Shown piece after piece: positions 5,604-63,763 of a stretch of DNA of 64,000 nt. Under the pieces are notes generated by a model, which was not told the DNA's origin, ran no database searches, and worked only from the letters and a program-made list of their open reading frames with translations. Source of the DNA: Bacteroidales bacterium (GTDB taxonomy: Bacteria; Bacteroidota; Bacteroidia; Bacteroidales; P3); contig JAISIA010000024.1 in NCBI GenBank assembly GCA_031262295.1, forward strand, positions 10,659-74,658. Reading direction: 5' to 3'. The stretch's first letter is position 1; the number at the start of each line of letters is the position of its first letter. Position numbers and translations under genes: made by a program.

Positions 5604-6968
5604 CTATTGTTTTGCAAATTCCTTATAGAAATGAGGAATTGTTTCTATTCCTTTTAGGAATTGATTAACAGGATAGCTTTCATTTGGAGAATGTATCGCA
5701 TCTGCGGAAAGTCCAAAGCCCATAAGTATGGATTTTATTCCCAATATCCTTTCAAAACCTGCAACAATTGGAATTGAACCTCCACTTTTAGTTGGGATAG
5801 GACGTTTTCCATAAACTTTTTCGTATGCTTTCTCTGCTGCCTTATAAGCAGGCATATCAATAGGTGAAACATAAGGATAGCCACCATGCAAAGGTGTCAC
5901 CTTAACTCTTACACCTTTTGGAGCAAGACTAAGAAAATACTTTTCAAATCTTTCTGTTATTATATTGAAATCCTGATCTGGAACTAAGCGAAAGGAAATC
6001 TTTGCGTGTGCTGATGAAGGAATAATTGTTTTAGAACCCTCTCCCTGATAGCCTCCCCAAATTCCGCAAACATCCAATGAAGGTCTTATTCCTGTTCTTT
6101 CTATTGTTGAATATCCCTTTTCTCCAAATACATCATCAATATCAAGCTCTTTTTTGTAGTTTTCCTCATTGTATGGAGCCTGAGCCATTAGTTTTCTTTC
6201 CTCATCCGAAATAACTAAGACCTCCTTATAGAAATCAGGAACTGTAATATGATTATTTTCATCCATAAGTTTTGAAATCATACCACACAATACATTAATT
6301 GGATTAGCAACAGCACCTCCATAAATACCAGAATGAAGATCCCTATCTGCACCTATAACTTCTACTTCAACATAACCCAATCCTCTTAATCCAGTTGTTA
6401 TAGATGGTGTATCCTCTCCTATCATTGAAGTGTCGGAAACAAGTATTATATCTGCTTTTAAAAGGTCTTTGTTCTTTTGACAAAAAGCATATAAGTTTTC
6501 AGAGCCTATCTCCTCCTCTCCTTCTAACATAAACTTTACATTAGTTGGCAATTGGTTTGTCTTAACCATATATTCAAAAGCCTTAGCATGCATAAAGGAT
6601 TGTCCCTTGTCATCATCTGCACCACGAGCATAAATTTTTCCATCTTTTATAATAGCTTTGAACGGGTCAGAATGCCATTGCTCAATAGGATCAACAGGCA
6701 TTACATCATAATGTCCATAAACCAAGACTGTCTTTTTTGTTGGGTCAATAATCTTTTCTGCATATACAACACTATTACCCTTTGTTGGCATTATATTACA
6801 ATAATCTACTCCTGCATTTATAAGCAATTCCTTCCATTTTTGAGCACATCTTTCCATATCTTGCTTATGTTCGTGCATAGAAGATATAGAAGGAATACTT
6901 ATAAGAGAGAATAGCTCATCAAAAAATCTGTCCTTGTTTTGTTCAATGTATTGTTTTAATGTTTCCAT
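5604..6968 (-). CDS. M20-family dipeptidase
   Basis: 454 aa. Motifs YGHYDVMPVDP, ARGADDDKGQ and LEGEEEIGS, typical of M20/ArgE-DapE-type metallopeptidases. Confidence 0.8.
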   Translation of the reverse strand: METLKQYIEQNKDRFFDELFSLISIPSISSMHEHKQDMERCAQKWKELLINAGVDYCNIMPTKGNSVVYAEKIIDPTKKTVLVYGHYDVMPVDPIEQWHSDPFKAIIKDGKIYARGADDDKGQSFMHAKAFEYMVKTNQLPTNVKFMLEGEEEIGSENLYAFCQKNKDLLKADIILVSDTSMIGEDTPSITTGLRGLGYVEVEVIGADRDLHSGIYGGAVANPINVLCGMISKLMDENNHITVPDFYKEVLVISDEERKLMAQAPYNEENYKKELDIDDVFGEKGYSTIERTGIRPSLDVCGIWGGYQGEGSKTIIPSSAHAKISFRLVPDQDFNIITERFEKYFLSLAPKGVRVKVTPLHGGYPYVSPIDMPAYKAAEKAYEKVYGKRPIPTKSGGSIPIVAGFERILGIKSILMGFGLSADAIHSPNESYPVNQFLKGIETIPHFYKEFAKQ

Positions 6969-9595: not shown

Positions 9596-10033
9596 ATGAA
9601 AAGAATTATTTTTTTTACCATATTAGCAATATCATTGTGTTTTTATAATAATATATTTTCTCAATCCATAGATGAGAGTTGTAAAATCATAGAAACTGAG
9701 GTAAAGGATGGAATTTACAATAATTTTTCTGTTAATTCCAATGGTTTTTTAACCTATAATTGGGTGGATAAAAAAAGTGATTCTCAAACCTTAATAACAA
9801 TTGATTTAACAAAGGTTAGAATAACAAAAGACGTTTCTCAAAGAGGATATAGGGTTTTTATAAATTGTATGGATGAAATAGATTGTATAAATGAAAAAGG
9901 CAGGCTTTCATCTAACGAAAACTACTATTCCGACTTCTCAAAAACATATATCCCAGCAAAAGATGAAAAAGGAATGATTGCAATATACAATCACCTACTA
10001 TTTCTTCTAAAATGGGGAAATACAAACAAGTAA
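9596..10033 (+). CDS. hypothetical secreted protein
   Basis: 145 aa with an N-terminal signal peptide; no family recognised. A TACCTTTG box lies at 9540-9547. Confidence 0.5.
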   Translation: MKRIIFFTILAISLCFYNNIFSQSIDESCKIIETEVKDGIYNNFSVNSNGFLTYNWVDKKSDSQTLITIDLTKVRITKDVSQRGYRVFINCMDEIDCINEKGRLSSNENYYSDFSKTYIPAKDEKGMIAIYNHLLFLLKWGNTNK

Positions 10034-10036
10034 TTA

Positions 10037-10275
10037 CCCGCAACGGGCATTTAATTGTCCTAACGGAAGTCTGCTTGTCGGCAACCGACTTTTAATTCGT
10101 CCTAACGGAAGTCTGGTTTTATATTTATAAGTTTATAATTCAACAAAAATATTTCTTCGTTTCAGCAAATTAAATCTTCGTTTTAAAAAATTATTTCTTC
10201 GTTTTAGTAAATTAAAACGCTGTTTTAGTAAATTATTTCTTCGTTTTAAAAAATTAAAACAGCGTTTTAGAAAAA
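10037..10275 (-). repeat. intergenic repeat locus A: 2 hairpin units + 6 phased 21-bp repeats
   Basis: Hairpin units lie at 10037-10074 and 10075-10116 (cccgcaacggg / gtcggcaaccgac, each followed by gtcctaacggaagtctg). Six exact 21-bp register units lie at 10150-10275 (tatttcttcgttttagtaaat / taaaacgctgttttagtaaat types). Orientation is opposite to loci C and G. Confidence 0.9.
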
Positions 10276-10310
10276 TAGGATTATGAAGAATAAATTTTAA
10301 AATTTTACAA

Positions 10311-16098: not shown

Positions 16099-16584
16099 AT
16101 GACAAATATTGGTCTTTTATCCGACACCCACAATAGCCTTCCTAAGCAGGTTTATACATTTTTTAAGGATTGTGATATAGTTCTTTGTGCAGGAGATATT
16201 GGTTCTACTGACGTCCTTGATGAATTAAGAAATTTTAAAGAAACTATTGCCGTCTATGGAAATATAGATGGATATGATATAACCTGCCAATTAAAACGTA
16301 TAGAAACATTTTTTATAGAAAAAACAAAGATTACCCTAACCCATATTGGAGGTTATCCAAATCATTATGAAAAAGGCATAAAGGAAATTCTTATAAAAGA
16401 AAAACCAAATATATTTATCTCTGGTCATAGCCACATATTAAAGGTGATTTACGATAAAGAATTAGACCTACTACATCTTAATCCTGGCGCCTGTGGCAAC
16501 TACGGATTTCACAAACAAAGAACCCTTATACGCTTTTCAATAGATGAAAAAACACCAAAAAACTTAGAAATCCTCGAATTTTAG
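16099..16584 (+). CDS. YfcE/MJ0936-type metallophosphoesterase
   Basis: 161 aa. Motifs GLLSDTH, CAGDIGS, GNIDG and SGHSH. Confidence 0.8.
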   Translation: MTNIGLLSDTHNSLPKQVYTFFKDCDIVLCAGDIGSTDVLDELRNFKETIAVYGNIDGYDITCQLKRIETFFIEKTKITLTHIGGYPNHYEKGIKEILIKEKPNIFISGHSHILKVIYDKELDLLHLNPGACGNYGFHKQRTLIRFSIDEKTPKNLEILEF

Positions 16585-17150
16585 CCACCAAGTGGCATTT
16601 AGTTTCCTGACGGAACTTATGGTTTTATTTTTATAGAGGGAGGTATGATTAAATTTTTTCTATGCTTTATTTTTTGGTAAAATAAACCTCTATTTTAACA
16701 TCATTTTTTAAAAAAAACGTCAAAATTTAACATTTTTTAACATTTCATTCAATTTTTGTCGGCAACCGACCTTTGTTTTTCCTAACGGAATTTAATATTT
16801 TCAAATTATTAATTATCAATATAATCCAAACAGATTTTAATATGTTTTCCCCGATTTTTAATTAAAAAACACAAAACCTTATTTTTTCAGAAAAAAACGA
16901 AGAAAAATTCAAATAAAACGCTGTTTTAATTTTCTAAAACGAAGAAATAATTTTCTAAAACGCTGTTTTATTTTACTAAAACGAAGTTTTATTCAGCAAT
17001 AACATACTAATAATAAAGTTATTACATCTTCAATAAAATAAAAATAAGATTTAGGAAAAATATTAGGCTTTTGCCCTAAGAAGAAACTTTGTTTAGGCAA
17101 AGGTATAAAAAAGATTTGATATATGCAAATGGGGGTTTTTGGTTTTGAAA
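16584..17150. repeat. intergenic repeat locus B: truncated long composite copy
   Basis: Hairpin gccaccaagtggc 16584-16596 overlaps the stop codon of the upstream gene. TTTAACAT boxes lie at about 16726-16747 and a hairpin unit at 16758-16790. Five 21-bp repeats have CG at 16898, 16919, 16940, 16961 and 16982. The internal promoter is at 17098-17129. Collinear with 34560-34995. Confidence 0.85.
17098..17129 (-). promoter_or_regulatory. Bacteroidetes sigma-A type promoter inside repeat copy B
   Basis: Minus strand: TTTG (complement 17126-17129), 20 nt, TACCTTTG (complement 17098-17105). It points toward the 21-bp array at 16889-16993. Confidence 0.6.
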
Positions 17151-17430
17151 TATGTATTATAGTATTTGATTTAGAAAATATTAAAGATTTTAATAAAAGA
17201 AAAATTTAACAATCTCAGAAAATAAGTCTATATATATTAATCATATTTCCAACAATATATAATTTTTGCAATCAGTTTAAAAGAATGCAAAAAACAATTT
17301 CATTTTACAAATTTCCATATATTTTTCCCGTATTGAATCTATTATACAAATAAACAAAGAAATACAAAAAAAATTTTATAATACTATTAAAATAAAATTT
17401 ATATTATTTGCTTAATATATTCCATAAAGG

Positions 17431-33654: not shown

Positions 33655-34335
33655 ATGTCAAAACTTTATTTGGTTCCAACTCCAATAGGGAATTTGGAAG
33701 ATATTACTCTTCGTGCTATACGCATACTAAAAGAGGTTGATCTAATTCTTGCAGAGGATACACGCACTTCAAAGAAACTTCTAAACCATTACCAAATTAC
33801 AACCCCATTAGAGTCGTATCACCTATTCAATGAACACGAAAAAGTGGAAAGAATTGCAGAAAAAATAAGTGCAGGATATAAAGTTGCTCTTATAAGTGAT
33901 GCAGGAACGCCCGCTATTTCAGACCCCGGATACCTACTTGTTAGACAATGCGTAAAACATGATATAGTTGTGGAGACACTTCCCGGTGCAACAGCCCTTA
34001 TAGTTGCATTAGTTAATTCAGCAATACCTTGTAATAGTTTTTCTTTTGAAGGATTTCTTCCCACTAAAAAAGGGAGGAAAACCCTATTAGATAAACTAAA
34101 AACAGAAGAAAGAACTATGATATTCTACGAATCCCCTTTTAGATTAATAAAAACTCTAAAAGATTTTAGTGAATATTTTGGAAAAGATAGAAGGGCATCA
34201 GTAAGTAGGGAACTAACAAAACTATTTGAAGAAAACAAAAGAGGCACTTTGGAAGAATTAATAAACTATTTTGAAAATAAAACAATAAAAGGAGAAATAG
34301 TAATCATAGTTCAAGGGTCGGCAACCGACTTTTAA
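33655..34335 (+). CDS. rsmI: 16S rRNA (cytidine1402-2'-O)-methyltransferase
   Basis: 226 aa. Motifs LYLVPTPIGNLEDITLRA, EDTR and ISDAGTPAISDPG. The last 6 codons (SATDF*) are encoded by a hairpin repeat unit. Confidence 0.9.
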   Translation: MSKLYLVPTPIGNLEDITLRAIRILKEVDLILAEDTRTSKKLLNHYQITTPLESYHLFNEHEKVERIAEKISAGYKVALISDAGTPAISDPGYLLVRQCVKHDIVVETLPGATALIVALVNSAIPCNSFSFEGFLPTKKGRKTLLDKLKTEERTMIFYESPFRLIKTLKDFSEYFGKDRRASVSRELTKLFEENKRGTLEELINYFENKTIKGEIVIIVQGSATDF

Positions 34336-35333
34336 TTGTCCTTGCGGAAATATGGGTTTTTATAATTATATATTTATATACTTATATTTATAATTCAATA
34401 AAAAATTATTCTTGTTTAAAATTTCTAAAACAAGGATAATTTTCTATGTAAATACAATAATTACCTATCAATTCCACAAATTCAAGACCTAAAATGTTAT
34501 ATTTTCAAAAATATTTAACATTTCATACCCCATTTTTGACCCCATTTTTAACACTTTAGTAAATTTTTTCGCCAAAATTTAACATTTTTTAACATTTCAT
34601 TCAATTTTTGTCGGCAACCGACCTTTGTTTTTCCTAACGGAATTTCAGCTTTTCAAATTATTAATTATCAATATAATCCAAACAAATTTTAATATGTTTT
34701 CCCCGATTTTTAATTAAAAAACTCAAAACCTTATTTTTTCAGAAAAAAAACGAAGATTTCTCCAAATAAAACGCTGTTTTATTTTCCTAAAACGAAGAAA
34801 TAATTTTCTAAATCTTCGTTTTAATTTTCTAAAACGAAGATTTATTTAAAGATAACACACTAATAATAAGATTATTATAATGCAATCAAAAATAAAAATA
34901 AGTTGTGGGGAAATTTATATGTCTTTTGCCTTAAAAGAAACTTTGTTTGGCAAAGATACAAAAAAGATTTGATAAATGCAAACGGGAAATTTCAGTTTTG
35001 AAATTTGGAATTTAACATTTGAAGGAAAAAATGTTAAATATTTTTTGAAATTACATTTTTCATATATCAAAGCAATGGGATTCATCTCCTTGTAAAACTA
35101 ATATTATATACAAATAATGGTAATTTATATAAAGAAACAATACGGGAAAAGAGATAAACCCCCTTATTATTGGTTATTTTGTGTAATGCCCTTTGCGGAT
35201 TATCCCTACTGAATTATGACAAAATAAAGGTGGGTTTTGACTTCCGCAAGGACAATTAAATGCCTGTTGCAGGCTTGCCGACAACCAGACTTCCGTTAGG
35301 ACGACTAAATGCCACTTGGTGGCTTGCCGACAA
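34317..35333. repeat. intergenic repeat locus D: full-length long composite copy (about 1 kb, ORF-less)
   Basis: Components in order: hairpin unit 34317-34350, TTTAACATTT boxes 34514-34598, hairpin unit 34610-34645, 21-bp repeats 34741-34847, promoter 34951-34982 (minus), inverted repeat 35009-35039, and two terminal hairpin units 35239-35333. Collinear with the reverse complement of 46753-47600. Confidence 0.9.
34951..34982 (-). promoter_or_regulatory. Bacteroidetes sigma-A type promoter inside repeat copy D
   Basis: Minus strand: TTTG (complement 34979-34982), 20 nt, TATCTTTG (complement 34951-34958). It points toward the 21-bp array at 34741-34847. Confidence 0.6.
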
Positions 35334-35466: not shown

Positions 35467-36675
35467 ATGAAGTTACTTTATAATTTAACATTAAACAAAA
35501 AGGTAAGGGCTTTTGCTATTATGGCATTAGCCTTGCCTTTTGGCTTATTTGCTCAAAGCAAAGTTATAGACTATGATACAACTATCTTTACAAAAGATAA
35601 AATTGATTGCATTTACAACAACATCATTTTAAGTTTTAATAATGATACTCTTTATTTTATAGACGAAAAGTTAGCACATAAAAATAAGTACAAAAAAGTC
35701 AAAATAAGTGGTCTTGACACAAAAACAAATAAAATGTTTTCCTTTTATTTTTCTGCTAAAAATTGTAATAACTTAAAAGATAAAAGAAATCATATTAGTC
35801 GTTTTTGGATAAAAGATAATAATCTTTATATAAATGTGTCTAATCATATTTATGTATTTAATAAAAATAAAGATAATGAATATGTTTTTCAAAAGGAAGT
35901 AAATAAACCTAAGGAAGGAGAAAATTATGATGCCTTTCCTTTAAAGGATAATAAGATTCTATTATATAAAAATTATCTCGGATTATTTGATACTTTTGAT
36001 GAAAGTACTTGTTGGTTATTATATGATTTAGAAAAAGAAGAAGTAATACAAAGAAAAGAGTATTTAAATTTCCCTTCTCCTATTTTAACTTACTTTGGAC
36101 CACGAGATATTATTAGCATAAGCAATGATAGGATATTTTATTCTCCTGCTAATGAATATAAAATACTGATTTATGATTTTAACCTTAACTTAGTTGATTC
36201 CATTGTGCATCAAAAAAAGAATTGGATAATGGTAGATGAGGAAAAAGAAAAGCAAGTACTTAATAAGTATGAAGAACCCATAGAAAGACTAAATGCTTTT
36301 TCAAATTATTTTTGGGATTCTACATCATCAATTATGAGACTTTTTACTTCTAATGATTATTTAATTGTAGTATATAAAGGGTTTAATGATAGTATAAAAT
36401 TGGAAATTGGCTTATATGATGTATGGCATAAAGAAAATAATGAATGGAAATTAATTGAAGAGGCTAATGAAGAAACTATTAATTATATTAAAAACAAATT
36501 TTATCCTTTTGGCGCAACCTTATTAAAAGACAATATTATTATTCAGATAAAAGAAAAGACCCCAATAAAGCGTGAAGATTATAAGAGCGAAGAAAAGTAT
36601 CAAAAAGCTAAGGAAAAGTATATTTTGAATGAAGATTGTTTATTAGTCATTGAAAAATTCCATATTAAGCAATGA
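35467..36675 (+). CDS. hypothetical secreted protein (possibly beta-propeller-like)
   Basis: 402 aa with a signal peptide, very AT-rich. No recognisable motif. The stop overlaps the next start (ATGA). Confidence 0.45.
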   Translation: MKLLYNLTLNKKVRAFAIMALALPFGLFAQSKVIDYDTTIFTKDKIDCIYNNIILSFNNDTLYFIDEKLAHKNKYKKVKISGLDTKTNKMFSFYFSAKNCNNLKDKRNHISRFWIKDNNLYINVSNHIYVFNKNKDNEYVFQKEVNKPKEGENYDAFPLKDNKILLYKNYLGLFDTFDESTCWLLYDLEKEEVIQRKEYLNFPSPILTYFGPRDIISISNDRIFYSPANEYKILIYDFNLNLVDSIVHQKKNWIMVDEEKEKQVLNKYEEPIERLNAFSNYFWDSTSSIMRLFTSNDYLIVVYKGFNDSIKLEIGLYDVWHKENNEWKLIEEANEETINYIKNKFYPFGATLLKDNIIIQIKEKTPIKREDYKSEEKYQKAKEKYILNEDCLLVIEKFHIKQ

Positions 36676-37244: not shown

Positions 37245-37328
37245 TACCCATATTCCGCAAGGACGAATAAAAGCCGCTTGGCGGTCCGTTAGGACAACTA
37301 AATGCTCGTTGCGGGTTCGGTTGCCGAC
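37245..37328 (+). repeat. intergenic repeat locus E: about 3 hairpin units
   Basis: Sequence tattccgcaaggacgaataaaagccgcttggcgg / tccgttaggacaactaaatgctcgttgcggg / ttcggttgccgac. It overlaps the 3' end of the minus-strand TIGR02757 gene. Confidence 0.85.
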
Positions 37329-38062
37329 TTATTTATTCCATAACCGAAGAGGGCAAAATCTCCTAAAAGGGGATCGGAAGGGAAAATGGTTTTTAGATTT
37401 TCGGTAATTTGTAAGGCTGTTTTTAAGGAAGGTTGTTTTATTGTGGTTAATTGTAAAAATAAAGCCTCCTTATGAACATGAGTATCTAATGGAATAATCA
37501 AATCCTTTGGCTCTAAGATATTCCATAAACCAAAATCTACAATACCATCGTTTCTTATCATCCATCTTAAAAACATACATAAACGTTTGCAAGCAGAAGT
37601 GATATTATTAGGAATACCTTTCACATCTTTAAACATCGTTATTATTATTTTTAGAATAACAATAGAATTATTTCCCTCTTTGTTTTCTTTTTGTTTTTCT
37701 TCAATTGCTTTTTCCAAAGAGGAATATTTTTCATATATATTATATAATGTAAGGCAAAGATTGTAATAGTCATTAAAGGTATAAAAACGATATAGACAAG
37801 AGGGATTATTCTTATATTTTACAAATCCTTTTTCTTTTATAAATTGGTAGGGAGAATTGTTATACAAGGCAAATTCCTTATGAATAATTTCTAAGGTTTT
37901 TATTATTTGTTTCCTATTTCCATAAGAGAGCCAAGAGGAGATAAAGGCAGAAATTTCAATATCTTTTTTTTCTTTATAAAGATGTGGAAATTGTATTGGG
38001 TCATTAAGAATGAAGTCTTTATTATTATATCTTTTGGAATATTCTATAATTAGGTCTTTCAT
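37298..38062 (-). CDS. TIGR02757 (DUF2400) family protein
   Basis: 254 aa. N-terminus with DPIQFPH...EISAFISSWLSYGNRKQI. The last roughly 10 codons (SATEPATSI*) are encoded by hairpin repeat units. Confidence 0.5.
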   Translation of the reverse strand: MKDLIIEYSKRYNNKDFILNDPIQFPHLYKEKKDIEISAFISSWLSYGNRKQIIKTLEIIHKEFALYNNSPYQFIKEKGFVKYKNNPSCLYRFYTFNDYYNLCLTLYNIYEKYSSLEKAIEEKQKENKEGNNSIVILKIIITMFKDVKGIPNNITSACKRLCMFLRWMIRNDGIVDFGLWNILEPKDLIIPLDTHVHKEALFLQLTTIKQPSLKTALQITENLKTIFPSDPLLGDFALFGYGINKSATEPATSI

Positions 38063-45812: not shown

Positions 45813-46676
45813 ATGAGACAATTAAAAATTATCAAGCAGCTTACCAATAGAGAAATTACCTCTTTGGATAAATACCTTCAAGAGATAGGTCGTTTGGAAA
45901 TGATTTCTCCCGAAGAAGAAGTTATTTTAGCACAAAAAATAAAACAAGGAGACCAAGCAGCATTAGATCGTTTGGCAACAGCAAACCTAAGATTTGTTGT
46001 ATCTGTTGCAAAGCAATATCAAAATCAAGGTATGTCCCTTCCTGATTTAATCAATGAAGGTAACTTGGGATTAATAAAAGCAGCACAACGTTTTGATGAA
46101 ACAAGAGGATTTAAGTTCATCTCCTATGCAGTTTGGTGGATACGTCAATCAATTCTTCAGGCTTTAGCAGAACAAAGTCGTATAGTAAGACTACCCTTAA
46201 ATAAGATAGGCTCACTAAATAAGATAAATAAAACTTATGCTAAGTTGGAACAGAAGTTTGAAAGACAACCCAACCCTGAGGAAGTTGCTTTTGAATTGAA
46301 TCTTTCCGAAAGCGAAGTGAGAGAAGCTGTACGCCATAGCGGAAAACATCTTTCTATGGATGCTCCTTTGGCAACAGATGAAGATAATACCATGTATGAC
46401 TTTATGCGTAGTGAAGAAAACACAACACCTGAGGCTGAACTTATGTACGAAAGTCTAAGAATGGAGATAAATAGAGCCATTTCTACCTTAACACAAAAAG
46501 AAGCTGACATACTAAAAATGTTCTTCGGATTGGAAGGTTATCCTCCTATGACTTTGGATGAAATAGGAGAACAATTTGATTTAACCCGAGAAAGAGTACG
46601 TCAAATTAAAGAAAAAGCAATACGCAGATTAAAACACACATCAAGAAGTAATATACTCAAAACTTATTTGGGATAA
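45813..46676 (+). CDS. rpoD: primary RNA polymerase sigma factor (Bacteroidetes sigma-A type)
   Basis: 287 aa. Regions 2-4 present ([41 protein letters not shown]). Confidence 0.9.
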
Positions 46677-46712: not shown

Positions 46713-46751
46713 AGCGACTAAGAACAAAAAAACGTTCTTAGTCGCTTTTTT
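46713..46751 (+). terminator. rho-independent terminator of rpoD
   Basis: 13-bp stem agcgactaagaac / gttcttagtcgct, 8-nt loop, then TTTTTT. The repeat copy F starts 2 nt later. Confidence 0.8.
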
Positions 46752-46752
46752 A

Positions 46753-47690
46753 GTCGGCAACCGACCTTTAATTTTCCTAACGGAAGTCTGGTTGTCAGCA
46801 ATTGACCTTTATTTTGTCTAATTCAATAGGGATAATCCGCAAAGAAAATTACATAAAATAACCAATAGCAAAGGGATTTATCCCCTTGTAAGCATTGTTT
46901 CTTTATATAAATTACCAATATTTGCGTATAATATTATTTTTACAATGGGATGAACCCCATTGTTTTGATATATGAAAAATGTAATTTCAAAAAATATTTA
47001 ACATTTTTCCCTTCAAATGTTAAATGCCGAAACTCCCAATTTGGAAAATGCCATTTGCATATATCAAATCTTTTTTGTACCTTTGCCAAAACAAAGTTTC
47101 TTTTAAGGGCAAGAAAGCTCTAATATTTCCAAATTTCATTTTCCTTTATATTTACAAAATAATCACTTTATTATTAGTGTGTTATCTTTAAATAAATCTT
47201 CGTTTTAGAAAATTAAAACGCTGTTTTAGAAAATTATTTCTTCGTTTTAGCAAATTAAAACAGCGTTTTATTTTGGAAAAATAAGGTTTTTGTTTTTTTA
47301 ATTAAAAATCTGAAAAATTATATTGAAATTTACTTATATTATATTGAGGATTACTTGATTACTAATTTTAGAAAATTTTAACAAATTTTGAAGCTCTAAA
47401 ATTGAGAAATTGAGTGAAATGTTAAAAATTCGTCAAATTTTGTGTTTTTTATGAGGAAGAAATGTTAAAATTTGGTGATTTTAGGGTTGGAAATGTTAAA
47501 ATCTTTTGAAAAAATAATATTTTAGATCTTTAATTTGTGGAGTTGATTGATAATTATTGTATTTACATAAAAATTATCCTTGTTTGTCGGCAACCGACCT
47601 TTATTCAGCTATTGGATTGAAAAAAATATAAGAAATTAAAACAAAGTTTTAGAAAAATAAAACAGCAACTTATTTTTTTATCTTGCTATT
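46753..47690. repeat. intergenic repeat locus F: full-length long composite copy, inverted relative to D
   Basis: Components in order: hairpin units 46753-46806, inverted repeat 46996-47025, promoter 47054-47085 (plus), four 21-bp repeats 47193-47276, GAAATGTTAAAA boxes at 47416, 47459 and 47489, hairpin 47586-47598, and degenerate 21-mers at about 47633-47680. Confidence 0.9.
47054..47085 (+). promoter_or_regulatory. Bacteroidetes sigma-A type promoter inside repeat copy F
   Basis: TTTG (47054-47057), 20-nt spacer, TACCTTTG (47078-47085). This matches the -33 TTTG / -7 TAnnTTTG consensus. It points toward the 21-bp array. Confidence 0.6.
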
Positions 47691-62228: not shown

Positions 62229-62328
62229 CAAAAAAAATTAAACAATAATTAATAAGTTTTTATCGTTAGATATTTGGTGTAATGAAAGAGTTTTTGAGAA
62301 AGGAAAAGAAAAAAATTGTAAAAAAAAT

Positions 62329-62360
62329 TTGTTAATACCATATAAATGTATTAATTTAGC
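62329..62360 (+). promoter_or_regulatory. candidate tonB promoter
   Basis: TTTG (62329-62332), 20 nt, TAATTTAG (62353-62360; one mismatch), 30 nt upstream of ATG 62390. Confidence 0.45.
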
Positions 62361-62389
62361 CCCCTGAAAACCTATAAAATTAAAATATT

Positions 62390-63085: not shown

Positions 63086-63110
63086 TTTATTTTATAATTT
63101 CATAAGCGAA

Positions 63111-63148
63111 AAAACTTCAAATGTTGAAAAGCATTTGAAGTTTTTTTT
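63111..63148 (+). terminator. rho-independent terminator of the tonB-like gene
   Basis: aaaacttcaaatg / catttgaagtttt stem with an 8-nt loop, followed by a T8 run. Confidence 0.8.
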
Positions 63149-63170
63149 ATTTAAAACCATATTATTTCTC

Positions 63171-63529
63171 CAATTAAACGAAGAAAAAAAGAAATAAAAC
63201 GAAGAAATAATTTTTTTAAACGAAGAAATAATTTACTAAAACGAAGAAATATTTTTCTAAAACGAAGATTTAATTTTATTGAAAAATAAACACATAAAAA
63301 TACTACCAGACTTCCGCAAGGACGAACAAAAGTCGGTTGCCGACAAACGAAGATTTAATTTTATTGAATTATAAACACATAAAAATACTACCAGACTTCC
63401 GCAAGGACAAATAAAGGTCGGTTGCCGACTACCAGACTTCCGTAAGGACGAATTAAAAGTCGGTTGCCGACAAAATCAGACTTTTGGTTAGGAAAAATTA
63501 AATGTCTATTGCCGACAATGTTAAAAATT
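63171..63529 (+). repeat. intergenic repeat locus G: 5 phased 21-bp repeats + 4 hairpin units (with an 85-bp tandem duplication)
   Basis: The 21-bp units span 63171-63277 (CG at 63179, 63200, 63221, 63242, 63263). Hairpin units lie at 63306-63344, 63391-63429, 63430-63471 and 63472-63516 (degenerate). An aatgttaaaaa box lies at 63517-63529. Confidence 0.9.
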
Positions 63530-63581
63530 ATGTATTATTTTATAGATATTGGCTATAAAATAGAGAAAAATTTAGTAAAAT

Positions 63582-63613
63582 TTTGCTAATACTATATAAA
63601 TATATTAATTTAG
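63582..63613 (+). promoter_or_regulatory. orphan copy of the tonB promoter
   Basis: TTTG (63582-63585), 20 nt, TAATTTAG (63606-63613). By hand count, 47 of 52 aligned positions are identical to 62329-62380. Confidence 0.45.
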
Positions 63614-63663
63614 CACCCTGAAAACTTATAAAAAAATAAAATCCGTTGAAATTTCATATAAGA

Positions 63664-63699
63664 AAAACTTCAAATGTTGAAAGGCATTTGAAGTTTTTT
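63664..63699 (+). terminator. second copy of the tonB terminator, upstream of the ABC-F gene
   Basis: aaaacttcaaatgttgaaaggcatttgaagtttttt differs at one loop position from 63111-63146. It lies 50 nt after the orphan promoter copy and 65 nt before ATG 63764. Confidence 0.7.
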
Positions 63700-63763
63700 G
63701 ATGTTAAATGGAATTATTATTTTTGCACAATAAGACAATGCAAATAAGACAAGTAGAATACAA

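Follow-up and report, generated by a model that had tools for sequence, protein, structure and literature searches.

The 40–41-nt repeated units found in the 64,000-nt stretch of DNA analyzed here (referred to below as the window) constitute a real and well-defined repeat family, and the second of the two hairpins in each unit (hairpin 2) is a maintained stem-loop, the pairing of which is truly kept. The units were observed to be one module of a larger mosaic, which is built from tandem bricks of 21 bp, an AT-rich leader and 1–4 units arranged head-to-tail. Our preferred explanation, to which we would assign an even chance, is that the units belong to a lineage-specific intergenic repeat mosaic, in which the hairpin most likely serves the element's own spread or upkeep. 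The proposal that the units act as a strand-specific RNA is not supported. The finding is descriptive and is based upon a single 64-kb genome fragment, which is ordinary chromosome containing the genes for ValS, RuvB, GlmS, a class-I tRNA synthetase, an rpoD-like sigma factor, MutS and type IX secretion cargo proteins. One secreted protein of 1,419 aa that is encoded in the window (21416-25675, + strand) contains fn3 domains, a type IX secretion sorting tail and four internal repeats of ~750 bp.

Identification and Make-up of the Repeat Units

Each unit is comprised of the sequence CCAGAC-TTCC-GYWA-GGAC, which contains hairpin 1, an A-rich linker and then the 5-bp stem with a TTG loop that forms hairpin 2. 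A covariance model derived from an alignment of 15 copies, and run without filters over the 64-kb window, identified 14 full copies with scores of 46–61 bits, four partial or degenerate copies with scores of 20–25 bits (37286, 47586, 63475, and 46794) and a fragment at 37317, with the top noise match in the window scoring 9.6 bits. These numbers account for the approximately 19 copies that had been counted in the first-pass annotation of this DNA. In the same 64 kb, the sequence CCAGACTTCCG has seven exact matches and 11 matches with two or fewer mismatches, whereas shuffled sequences have 3.9 on average and no more than 8. The 18–19 copies occupy 724 of the 7,544 intergenic bases of the window, and all of them lie between genes, apart from overlaps with an ORF that cover no more than its last 31 nt. 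By simple extrapolation, the whole genome would contain hundreds of copies. The units occur both singly and in tandem runs of 2–4, as had been annotated, and Tandem Repeats Finder detected tandem periods of 41, 49, and 85. Adjacent units are all arranged head-to-tail, and the sole inverted pair, which is present at locus D, is 892 nt apart.

Most of the copies are intact and their 5′ prefix is variable. The loop of hairpin 1 is GCAA, GTAA, GTTA, or GTCA in the 15-copy alignment, the same four sequences that were reported earlier, and half of these loops are of the GNRA type (GCAA, GTAA) and the other half GTTA or GTCA. The variant hairpin 2 stems noted previously (GCCAC at 16584, 27999, and 35311, GCCTG at 35262, CCCG at 10037, GCCGC at 37273, and GCTCG at 37304) were each found where they had been placed. 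Hairpin 2 is flanked by AAAN on its 5′ side and by either WA-CCAGAC or unique DNA on its 3′ side. The loop types of hairpin 1 and the stem types of hairpin 2 are reassorted among the 15 aligned copies; the GCCAC stem subfamily, for example, has four members (16584, 27999, 35311, and one at the end of the ValS gene past the window edge), which carry three different hairpin 1 loops. Behind the variant-stem units, an additional unpaired TTGCCGAC or TCGGTTGCCGAC is often present, corresponding to the 3′ part of the canonical hairpin (35275-35282, 35324-35331, 37317-37328 and, in Logan contig L119, 10914-10921). These tails suggest either a conserved terminal motif, TTGCCGAC, or recombination of the units at their TTG loops.

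Conservation of Pairing in Hairpin 2

As the first list of copies that we compiled had demanded pairing, the copies were re-ascertained by hairpin 1 alone, independently of hairpin 2. The sequence TCCGNNAGGA alone occurs 16 times in the 64-kb window, where 0.45 occurrences are expected, and 15 of these 16 matches lead into an A-rich linker and a TTG hairpin in which all five pairs are formed, the remaining one being a chance match within a gene. Over these 15 copies, the pairs of hairpin 2 include 70 Watson-Crick pairs, five G-T pairs and no mismatches, and six different stems are present (GTCGG, GCCAC, GCCTG, GCCCG, GCCGC, and GCTCG), which require at least five independent double substitutions. 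Changes on both sides were observed at three of the five pairs, in 17 cells, and the observed covariation score was reached by none of 500 shuffles. The TTG loop and the AAA immediately upstream of the stem are invariant in all 15 copies. Thus, the earlier statement that the loop is kept while the stem changes in a compensatory manner also holds when the copies are chosen by hairpin 1 only. The 3-bp stem of hairpin 1 (TCC/GGA), in contrast, shows no variation among the copies, and hence it provides no covariation evidence for or against structure in that part of the unit.

The folding energy of hairpin 2 alone is approximately -5 kcal/mol on either strand. In minimum-free-energy folds of units and dimers on both strands, the double hairpin was not consistently recovered, and the z-scores ranged from 0.0 to -2.9. 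An alternative pairing between CCAGACUU and AAGUCGG was also considered, but it was dropped as it is lost in the copies with variant stems.

Association of the Units with Bricks and Leaders

In the brick arrays, the sequence TAAAACGAAGAAATAATTTNN alternates with the dyad TAAAAC-GCT/AGC-GTTTTA, with a period of 21 bp and a super-period of 42 bp. Such arrays are present in the window at positions 10146-10300, 16894-16991, 27813-27915, 34767-34844, 47193-47270, and 63172-63277. A conserved AT-rich leader (TTTTATTGAAWWATAAAC..ATAAAAAT) joins the array to the first unit, and this architecture of brick, leader and unit is repeated at four loci, given as A, D1a, and H (twice). Additionally, a composite repeat of approximately 400–480 bp is present in three copies, which are up to 97% identical (16718-17191, - strand; 34570-35044, - strand; and ~46975-47340, + strand). 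In the composite repeat, a brick array lies past a good Bacteroidetes-type promoter (TTTG, 20 nt, TAYCTTTG; TTTGCATATATCAAATCTTTTTTGTAYCTTTGCC), and a unit is also present in two of the three copies. In both cases this is a full unit that lacks the CCAGAC prefix (16758..16797 and 34610..34649, both on the - strand). In two of the copies of the composite repeat, the promoter has no gene downstream and points at the end of a convergent gene. The reverse complement of a unit together with its leader was separately considered as a Bacteroidetes promoter (TTTG, 21 nt, TAGTATTT) and rejected, due to an imperfect -7 box and the presence of TTTG in only a few copies.

The two dyads of a unit are approximately 21.5 nt apart and the tandem periods of the units are 41–43 bp, which is the same geometry as that of the brick arrays, and we infer from this that the units and the bricks are related. 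The end of the unit that bears hairpin 2 faces outward from the mosaic in every cluster, either toward unique DNA or toward the end of a gene.

Location of the Units Relative to Genes

Seven gene ends are met by units in antisense, and in most of these cases the stop codon is touched or overlapped. In cluster A, a full unit with the stem GCCCG/CGGGT and the loop GTTA (10036..10075, - strand; 57.2 bits) begins 2 nt past the stop of the ORF 9596..10033(+), to which it is antisense. It is in tandem with a full canonical unit, GTCGG-TTG-CCGAC (10077..10117, - strand; 59.6 bits), which is followed by the AT-rich leader (TTGTTGAATTATAAAC..ATAAAA) and a 21-bp brick array (TAAAACGAAGAAATAATTTNN / TAAAACGCTGTTTTAATTTNN) at 10118..10300 (- strand), so that units, leader and bricks together occupy nearly the whole gap between two convergent genes. 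The unit of cluster B1 (16584..16622, - strand; 46.3 bits), with the stem GCCAC/GTGGC and the loop GTCA, overlaps the ORF 16099..16584(+) by 1 nt, its last base being the G of the TAG stop. Similarly, the full unit of cluster C (27972..28011, + strand), with the stem GCCAC/GTGGT, shares 1 nt with the TAA stop of the ORF 28011..29048(-), which encodes an M23/LysM protein. The full canonical unit of cluster D1a (34317..34356, - strand) is read antisense as the final 19 nt of the ORF 33655..34335(+), ending in ..GSATDF*, and the compressed cluster E (37246..37328, + strand), which is made up of a full unit (GCCGC/GCGGT), a truncated unit (GCTCG/CGGGT) and the fragment TCGGTTGCCGAC, is read antisense as the final 31 nt of the ORF 37298..38062(-), ending in ..KSATEPATSI*. 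The units therefore supply the last codons and stop codons of at least two genes. A further unit overlaps the stop codon of the ValS gene, and it lies at the end of a Logan contig of the same organism that extends beyond the window on the left by 877 nt. In cluster F (46753..46828, - strand), a full canonical unit and a partial unit (GTCAA-TTG-CTGAC) are located 76 nt past the rpoD-like ORF 45813..46676(+), directly behind a canonical terminator at 46713-46746.

Other clusters are located differently. Cluster D2 (35235..35331, + strand; period 49) consists of two tandem units, with the stems GCCTG/CAGGC and GCCAC/GTGGC, each of which is followed by an extra TTGCCGAC tail, and it lies 135 nt before the ORF 35467..36675(+). 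Cluster G, which is only the 3′ half of a unit, viz. the linker and GTCGG-TTG-CCGAC (47586..47605, - strand; 22.7 bits), is likewise upstream of a gene. Cluster H (63306-63516) is present between two co-directional genes, 219 nt past the first of these and after a strong terminator hairpin. Upstream of it is a 21-bp brick array with approximately five copies of TAAAACGAAGAAATAATTTNN (63172..63277, + strand), which leads into an 85-bp tandem duplication (63260..63429, + strand; 94% identical), where each half contains the last brick, the leader (TTTTATTGAAWWATAAACACATAAAAATACTA) and a canonical unit (63305-63344 and 63390-63429, + strand). The second of these units is in tandem with a full canonical unit having the loop GTAA (63431..63471, + strand; 59.5 bits), followed by a degenerate unit (CAGACTTTTGGTTAGGAAAAATTAAATGTCTATTGCCGAC) in which the stem is broken (63475..63516, + strand; 20.8 bits). 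The sequence of this region reads as the first-pass annotation had described it, and we count three good units and a degenerate one in it. The generalization in that annotation, which placed the units of all seven loci at gene 3′ ends, is only partly correct: clusters D2 and G are upstream of genes, cluster H is between two genes, and the units that touch a gene end are antisense to that gene.

Some other features were observed near cluster H. A long terminator-like hairpin (CTTCAAATG-TTGAAARGC-CATTTGAAG, with A/T runs) flanks this cluster on both sides (63107-63150 and 63655-63700). The promoter region of a TonB-like gene is duplicated, with 82% identity, upstream of an ABC-F gene (62312-62388 and 63566-63642), and the second of the long hairpins (63655-63700) is located between this promoter copy and the ABC-F start codon.

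Distribution in Related Organisms and Search for Mobile Element Features

The window derives from an uncultured Bacteroidales lineage, for which the unit family appears to be specific. The best non-self match of its MutS protein shows 70% identity and is labelled as a Bacteroidales MAG. Four loci from three relatives having this level (70%) of MutS identity were devoid of units. In an incomplete scan of the JGI metagenomes, a pattern with 19 specified bases gave only five matches, all due to chance, and three incomplete scans of viral contigs, with both halves of the unit and with the brick, gave none. The sequence CAGACTTCCGNNAGGA, a pattern that is too short to establish the distribution in cultured genomes, had 117 chance matches and no full unit in the genome collection. 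The region of cluster H had no blastn match among plasmids or phages, and the concatenated six-frame translations of the units matched no protein, including ORFs called on other copies.

The relatives do carry several intergenic arrays of 21- or 22-bp dyads, which are of unrelated sequence, and in some of these the arms covary (AGAC-GCC-GTCT vs. AGAT-NNN-ATCT). These arrays are located in the genome fragments L125 (7759-8102 and 9714-9912), L126 (9670-9756, 12986-13083, and 18393-18490), and L128 (380-555, 2327-2396, and 8217-8289). The dyads differ from one array to another (e.g., TAAAAC-GCT-GTTTTA, AGAC-GCC-GTCT, and GAATC-AA-GATTC), with a period of 21 or 22 bp and a super-period of 42 bp. 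As dyad arrays are present in the genome from which the window derives and in all three relatives, they are apparently clade-wide, resembling the BrickBuilt minisatellite of P. gingivalis. In short-read Logan contigs of the same organism (SRR14710920), contig L118 ends exactly in a brick array and both ends of contig L119 are in units; hence, these repeats fragment the short-read assemblies of this organism.

The 64-kb window was found to contain neither a transposase of any type nor an IS, and tblastn searches of it for Y1_Tnp were also negative. Within the window, the mosaics are not bounded by terminal inverted repeats and their flanks show no clear or consistent target-site duplication; in the unit alignment there is no GTAG or CGTC tag next to hairpin 2. 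The chromosomal orientation of the units is mixed, and this is therefore a poor fit to a strictly lagging-strand mechanism of the IS200/IS605 type. One sequence, CAGACTTCCGCA, which agrees with the terminal repeat of BrickBuilt in 9 of 12 positions, was considered as an IS5-type end, but it is internal to the mosaic and wrongly oriented and was judged to be a chance match. In one relative, L125 contains an IS200-like Y1_Tnp gene (5979-6434; 151 aa, with an HVHFLV motif) that is flanked at 5940-5975 and 6445-6475 by G+C hairpins with a CTTG loop (CGCCG-CTTG-CGGCG), loosely similar to GCCGC-TTG-GCGGT at 37273. No units were detected in this genome fragment.

Alternative Explanations for the Units

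The first-pass annotation had viewed the units as a structured RNA element in the CCAGAC sense, situated in 3′ UTRs and with both of its hairpins under selection. All five of the non-Watson-Crick cells in the 15 full copies are indeed G-U in this sense, giving 100% pairing, half of the hairpin 1 loops are GNRA-type, and a co-oriented gene end is found 94–358 nt upstream in clusters A, C, and E. However, when covariation was assessed for each strand, the reverse complement shared all 17 of the double-change cells and was 95.8% paired. The two strands thus differ in only 5 of 120 pair cells, and the entire strand argument rests on these five. Two of them are at unit junctions (..GCGG followed by TCCGTTAGGA, 37285; and ..CGGG followed by T and then TCGGTTGCCGAC, 37316), where the T's may belong to the next unit because a truncated next unit starts exactly there. 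At 28011, the T is complementary to the final base of a TAA stop, and since a C in this position would merely turn the stop into TAG, either base can stand there. The reverse asymmetry is seen in the degenerate copies at 46794 and 63475, in which the pair is A-C (a G-U on the antisense strand), and with such copies included the tally of G-U vs. A-C is approximately 5:2, which is not significant. G-T wobble pairs are also tolerated in single-stranded DNA, so that the G-T cells could not prove an RNA in any case. The invariance of hairpin 1, which has only 3 bp and in half of the copies a GTTA or GTCA loop, and the inconsistent recovery of the double hairpin in the folds likewise count against this view. 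Rfam contains no match to the unit: a scan with Rfam 15 at the gathering thresholds found only two tRNAs, and a permissive scan of 63100-63720 gave only noise (E above 1). Additionally, all seven of the gene ends that are touched or approached by units meet them in antisense, which is the opposite of what is expected for a sense 3′-UTR element, and the units of clusters F and H, as well as those of loci B and D, are separated from any co-oriented gene upstream by a canonical terminator or a promoter. We therefore consider a sense RNA quite improbable, and of the three readings that include it, the repeat mosaic and an antisense terminator or 3′-end effect, it is the least supported.

A second alternative is that the reverse complement, GTCGG-CAA-CCGAC followed by NUUURWUU, is the strand that functions, as a modular intrinsic terminator or 3′-end hairpin for the incoming gene, with tandem copies acting additively. 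This strand (GTCGG-CAA-CCGAC, then NTTTRWTT) agrees with simple terminator criteria, a simple scan for which flagged reverse-complement units at 10077, 16584, 16758, 34313, 34610, 35274, 46753, and 47586, and the TTT right past the stem is invariant in 15 of 15 copies. Reverse-complement units are present past seven gene ends, six of them at -31 to +2 nt and the seventh at +76 nt, and five of the seven have no other hairpin behind them. On the other hand, the stem has just 5 bp and approximately -5 kcal/mol, as compared to -15 to -20 kcal/mol for the canonical terminators of the window, A-C is present at the stem base of this strand in four copies, one copy (37304) fails to fold at all, there is no gene for clusters D2, G, and H to face on this strand, a strong terminator already precedes the unit of rpoD, and the invariant loop and the conserved hairpin 1 are left unexplained. 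A weak terminator or 3′-end effect on the antisense strand is thus plausible but unproven, and as the main explanation of the units it seems to us unlikely, though a credible candidate. The units and bricks could also work as duplex DNA, with short dyads phased two helical turns apart and bound by a nucleoid or regulatory protein. In favor of such a role are the dyad spacing and tandem periods of the units, which agree with the period (21 bp) and super-period (42 bp) of the bricks, and the many 21/22-bp dyad arrays in relatives, but a dimeric binder needs a conserved half-site, whereas the arms here take six sequences and only their complementarity is kept, and no candidate binding protein is known; this reading is very improbable. 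A broader and rather doubtful idea is that the units and the 21/22-bp dyad arrays are two forms of one system, in which phased mini-hairpins of fixed loop and free stem would be read single-stranded by a dedicated protein of the clade, thereby shaping most of its intergenic regions. The protein of such a system might be a new repeat-propagating nuclease or transposase, or else an RNA 3′-end or anti-termination factor.

Proposed Explanation and Its Significance

We return to the explanation that we prefer, viz. a lineage-specific mosaic whose hairpin serves its own spread or upkeep. As a free stem is found beside a fixed loop and flank, hairpin 2 is probably read by a protein as a folded single strand, of either DNA or RNA. 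By analogy with the REP hairpins and their Y1/HUH (RAYT) transposases, and with the repeat-bearing MITEs of Porphyromonas, this reading most likely serves the spread or upkeep of the element, which would give rise to new copies, subfamilies and tandem duplications. That the element multiplies or turns over is suggested by its spread subfamilies, its tandem duplications, its confinement to one lineage and the intergenic gaps that it fills. The copies would then persist where they are least harmful, viz. behind gene ends and between convergent genes, and a gene that abuts a unit, which reads a short G+C hairpin and then a U-rich run, may thereby gain a weak stop or 3′-end hairpin as a side effect rather than as the main function. 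The lack, in the 64 kb, of a transposase, terminal inverted repeats, clear target-site duplications, a tag and inverted dimers, the mixed orientation, and the low stability of hairpin 2 (approximately -5 kcal/mol) count against this explanation, and the intact copies with their variable 5′ prefix could equally reflect in-place selection for a host function.

If this explanation is correct, it would add a case from the Bacteroidales to the small set of bacterial lineages in which the intergenic DNA is colonized by hairpin repeats. The organization of these repeats would also be unusual, with head-to-tail arrays, two hairpins per unit and a tie to 21-bp minisatellites, and the contrast of a fixed loop with a compensated stem would offer a clear starting point in the search for the protein by which the hairpin is read.

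Comparison with Known Repeat Elements

The closest known counterparts of the units appear to be the REP/BIME mosaics and, in Porphyromonas gingivalis, the MITEs that bear internal repeats; the features by which these are defined (end tags, inverted dimers and terminal inverted repeats) are lacking here. A more limited resemblance is seen to the mycobacterial MIRU and pneumococcal BOX elements, which are interspersed loci with a variable number of head-to-tail repeats of approximately 40–50 nt. BOX elements are modular (boxA, boxB in n copies, and boxC), but their modules are longer and they are confined to streptococci, and MIRUs are located within operons, contain stop and start codons that overlap and are not hairpin based. 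The trait in common with the units is the variable number of head-to-tail repeats per locus, and the sequences are unrelated.

The analogy with REP/BIME that was drawn in the first-pass annotation is a reasonable one in the sense of how the elements work, and there is no sequence similarity. Like the REP/BIME of E. coli, Pseudomonas and Stenotrophomonas, the units contain short G+C-rich hairpins that are dense and extragenic in an otherwise different genome background, prefer gene ends and convergent gene pairs, sometimes overlap the last codons, include subfamilies that differ in their stems and form mosaics with other short motifs. As in REPs, a short palindrome is present in high copy outside genes, in this case a 13-nt hairpin in a 40-nt unit with 18–19 copies per 64 kb, and stems of as few as 5 bp are known in the GTAG superfamily of REPs (PMC3733652). 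However, REPs fall into GTAG- and CGTC-tagged superfamilies, in which inverted dimers dominate and head-to-tail dimers are negligible (PMC3733652), whereas the units have no unpaired GTAG or CGTC tag and are found head-to-tail only, with neither inverted dimers nor alternating orientation. The units also differ from REPs in having two different hairpins each and in their occurrence in Bacteroidales.

In P. gingivalis, the BrickBuilt elements consist of 23-nt bricks with a leader and a tail, are intergenic and have promoter activity (PMC4596501), and the tandem Repeat C of MITEPgRS, with a reported length of 41 nt, is present in up to 14 copies (PMC2575886, PMC4596501); the likeness of Repeat C to our unit is one of description and not of sequence alignment. 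Terminal inverted repeats of the IS5 type, GAGACCTTTGCA, are present at the ends of the P. gingivalis elements (PMC2575886, PMC4596501), whereas the mosaics described here have no consistent target-site duplication and no terminal inverted repeats matching a resident IS. In other respects the likeness is extensive: the mosaic, with its internal tandem repeats and its leader and tail in intergenic DNA, shares with MITEPgRS/MITE464 and BrickBuilt its occurrence in Bacteroidales, a limited host range, a strictly intergenic location, internal tandem direct repeats with dyad symmetry, leader and tail segments that are distinct, internal promoter-like sequences and 10–20 or more copies per genome.
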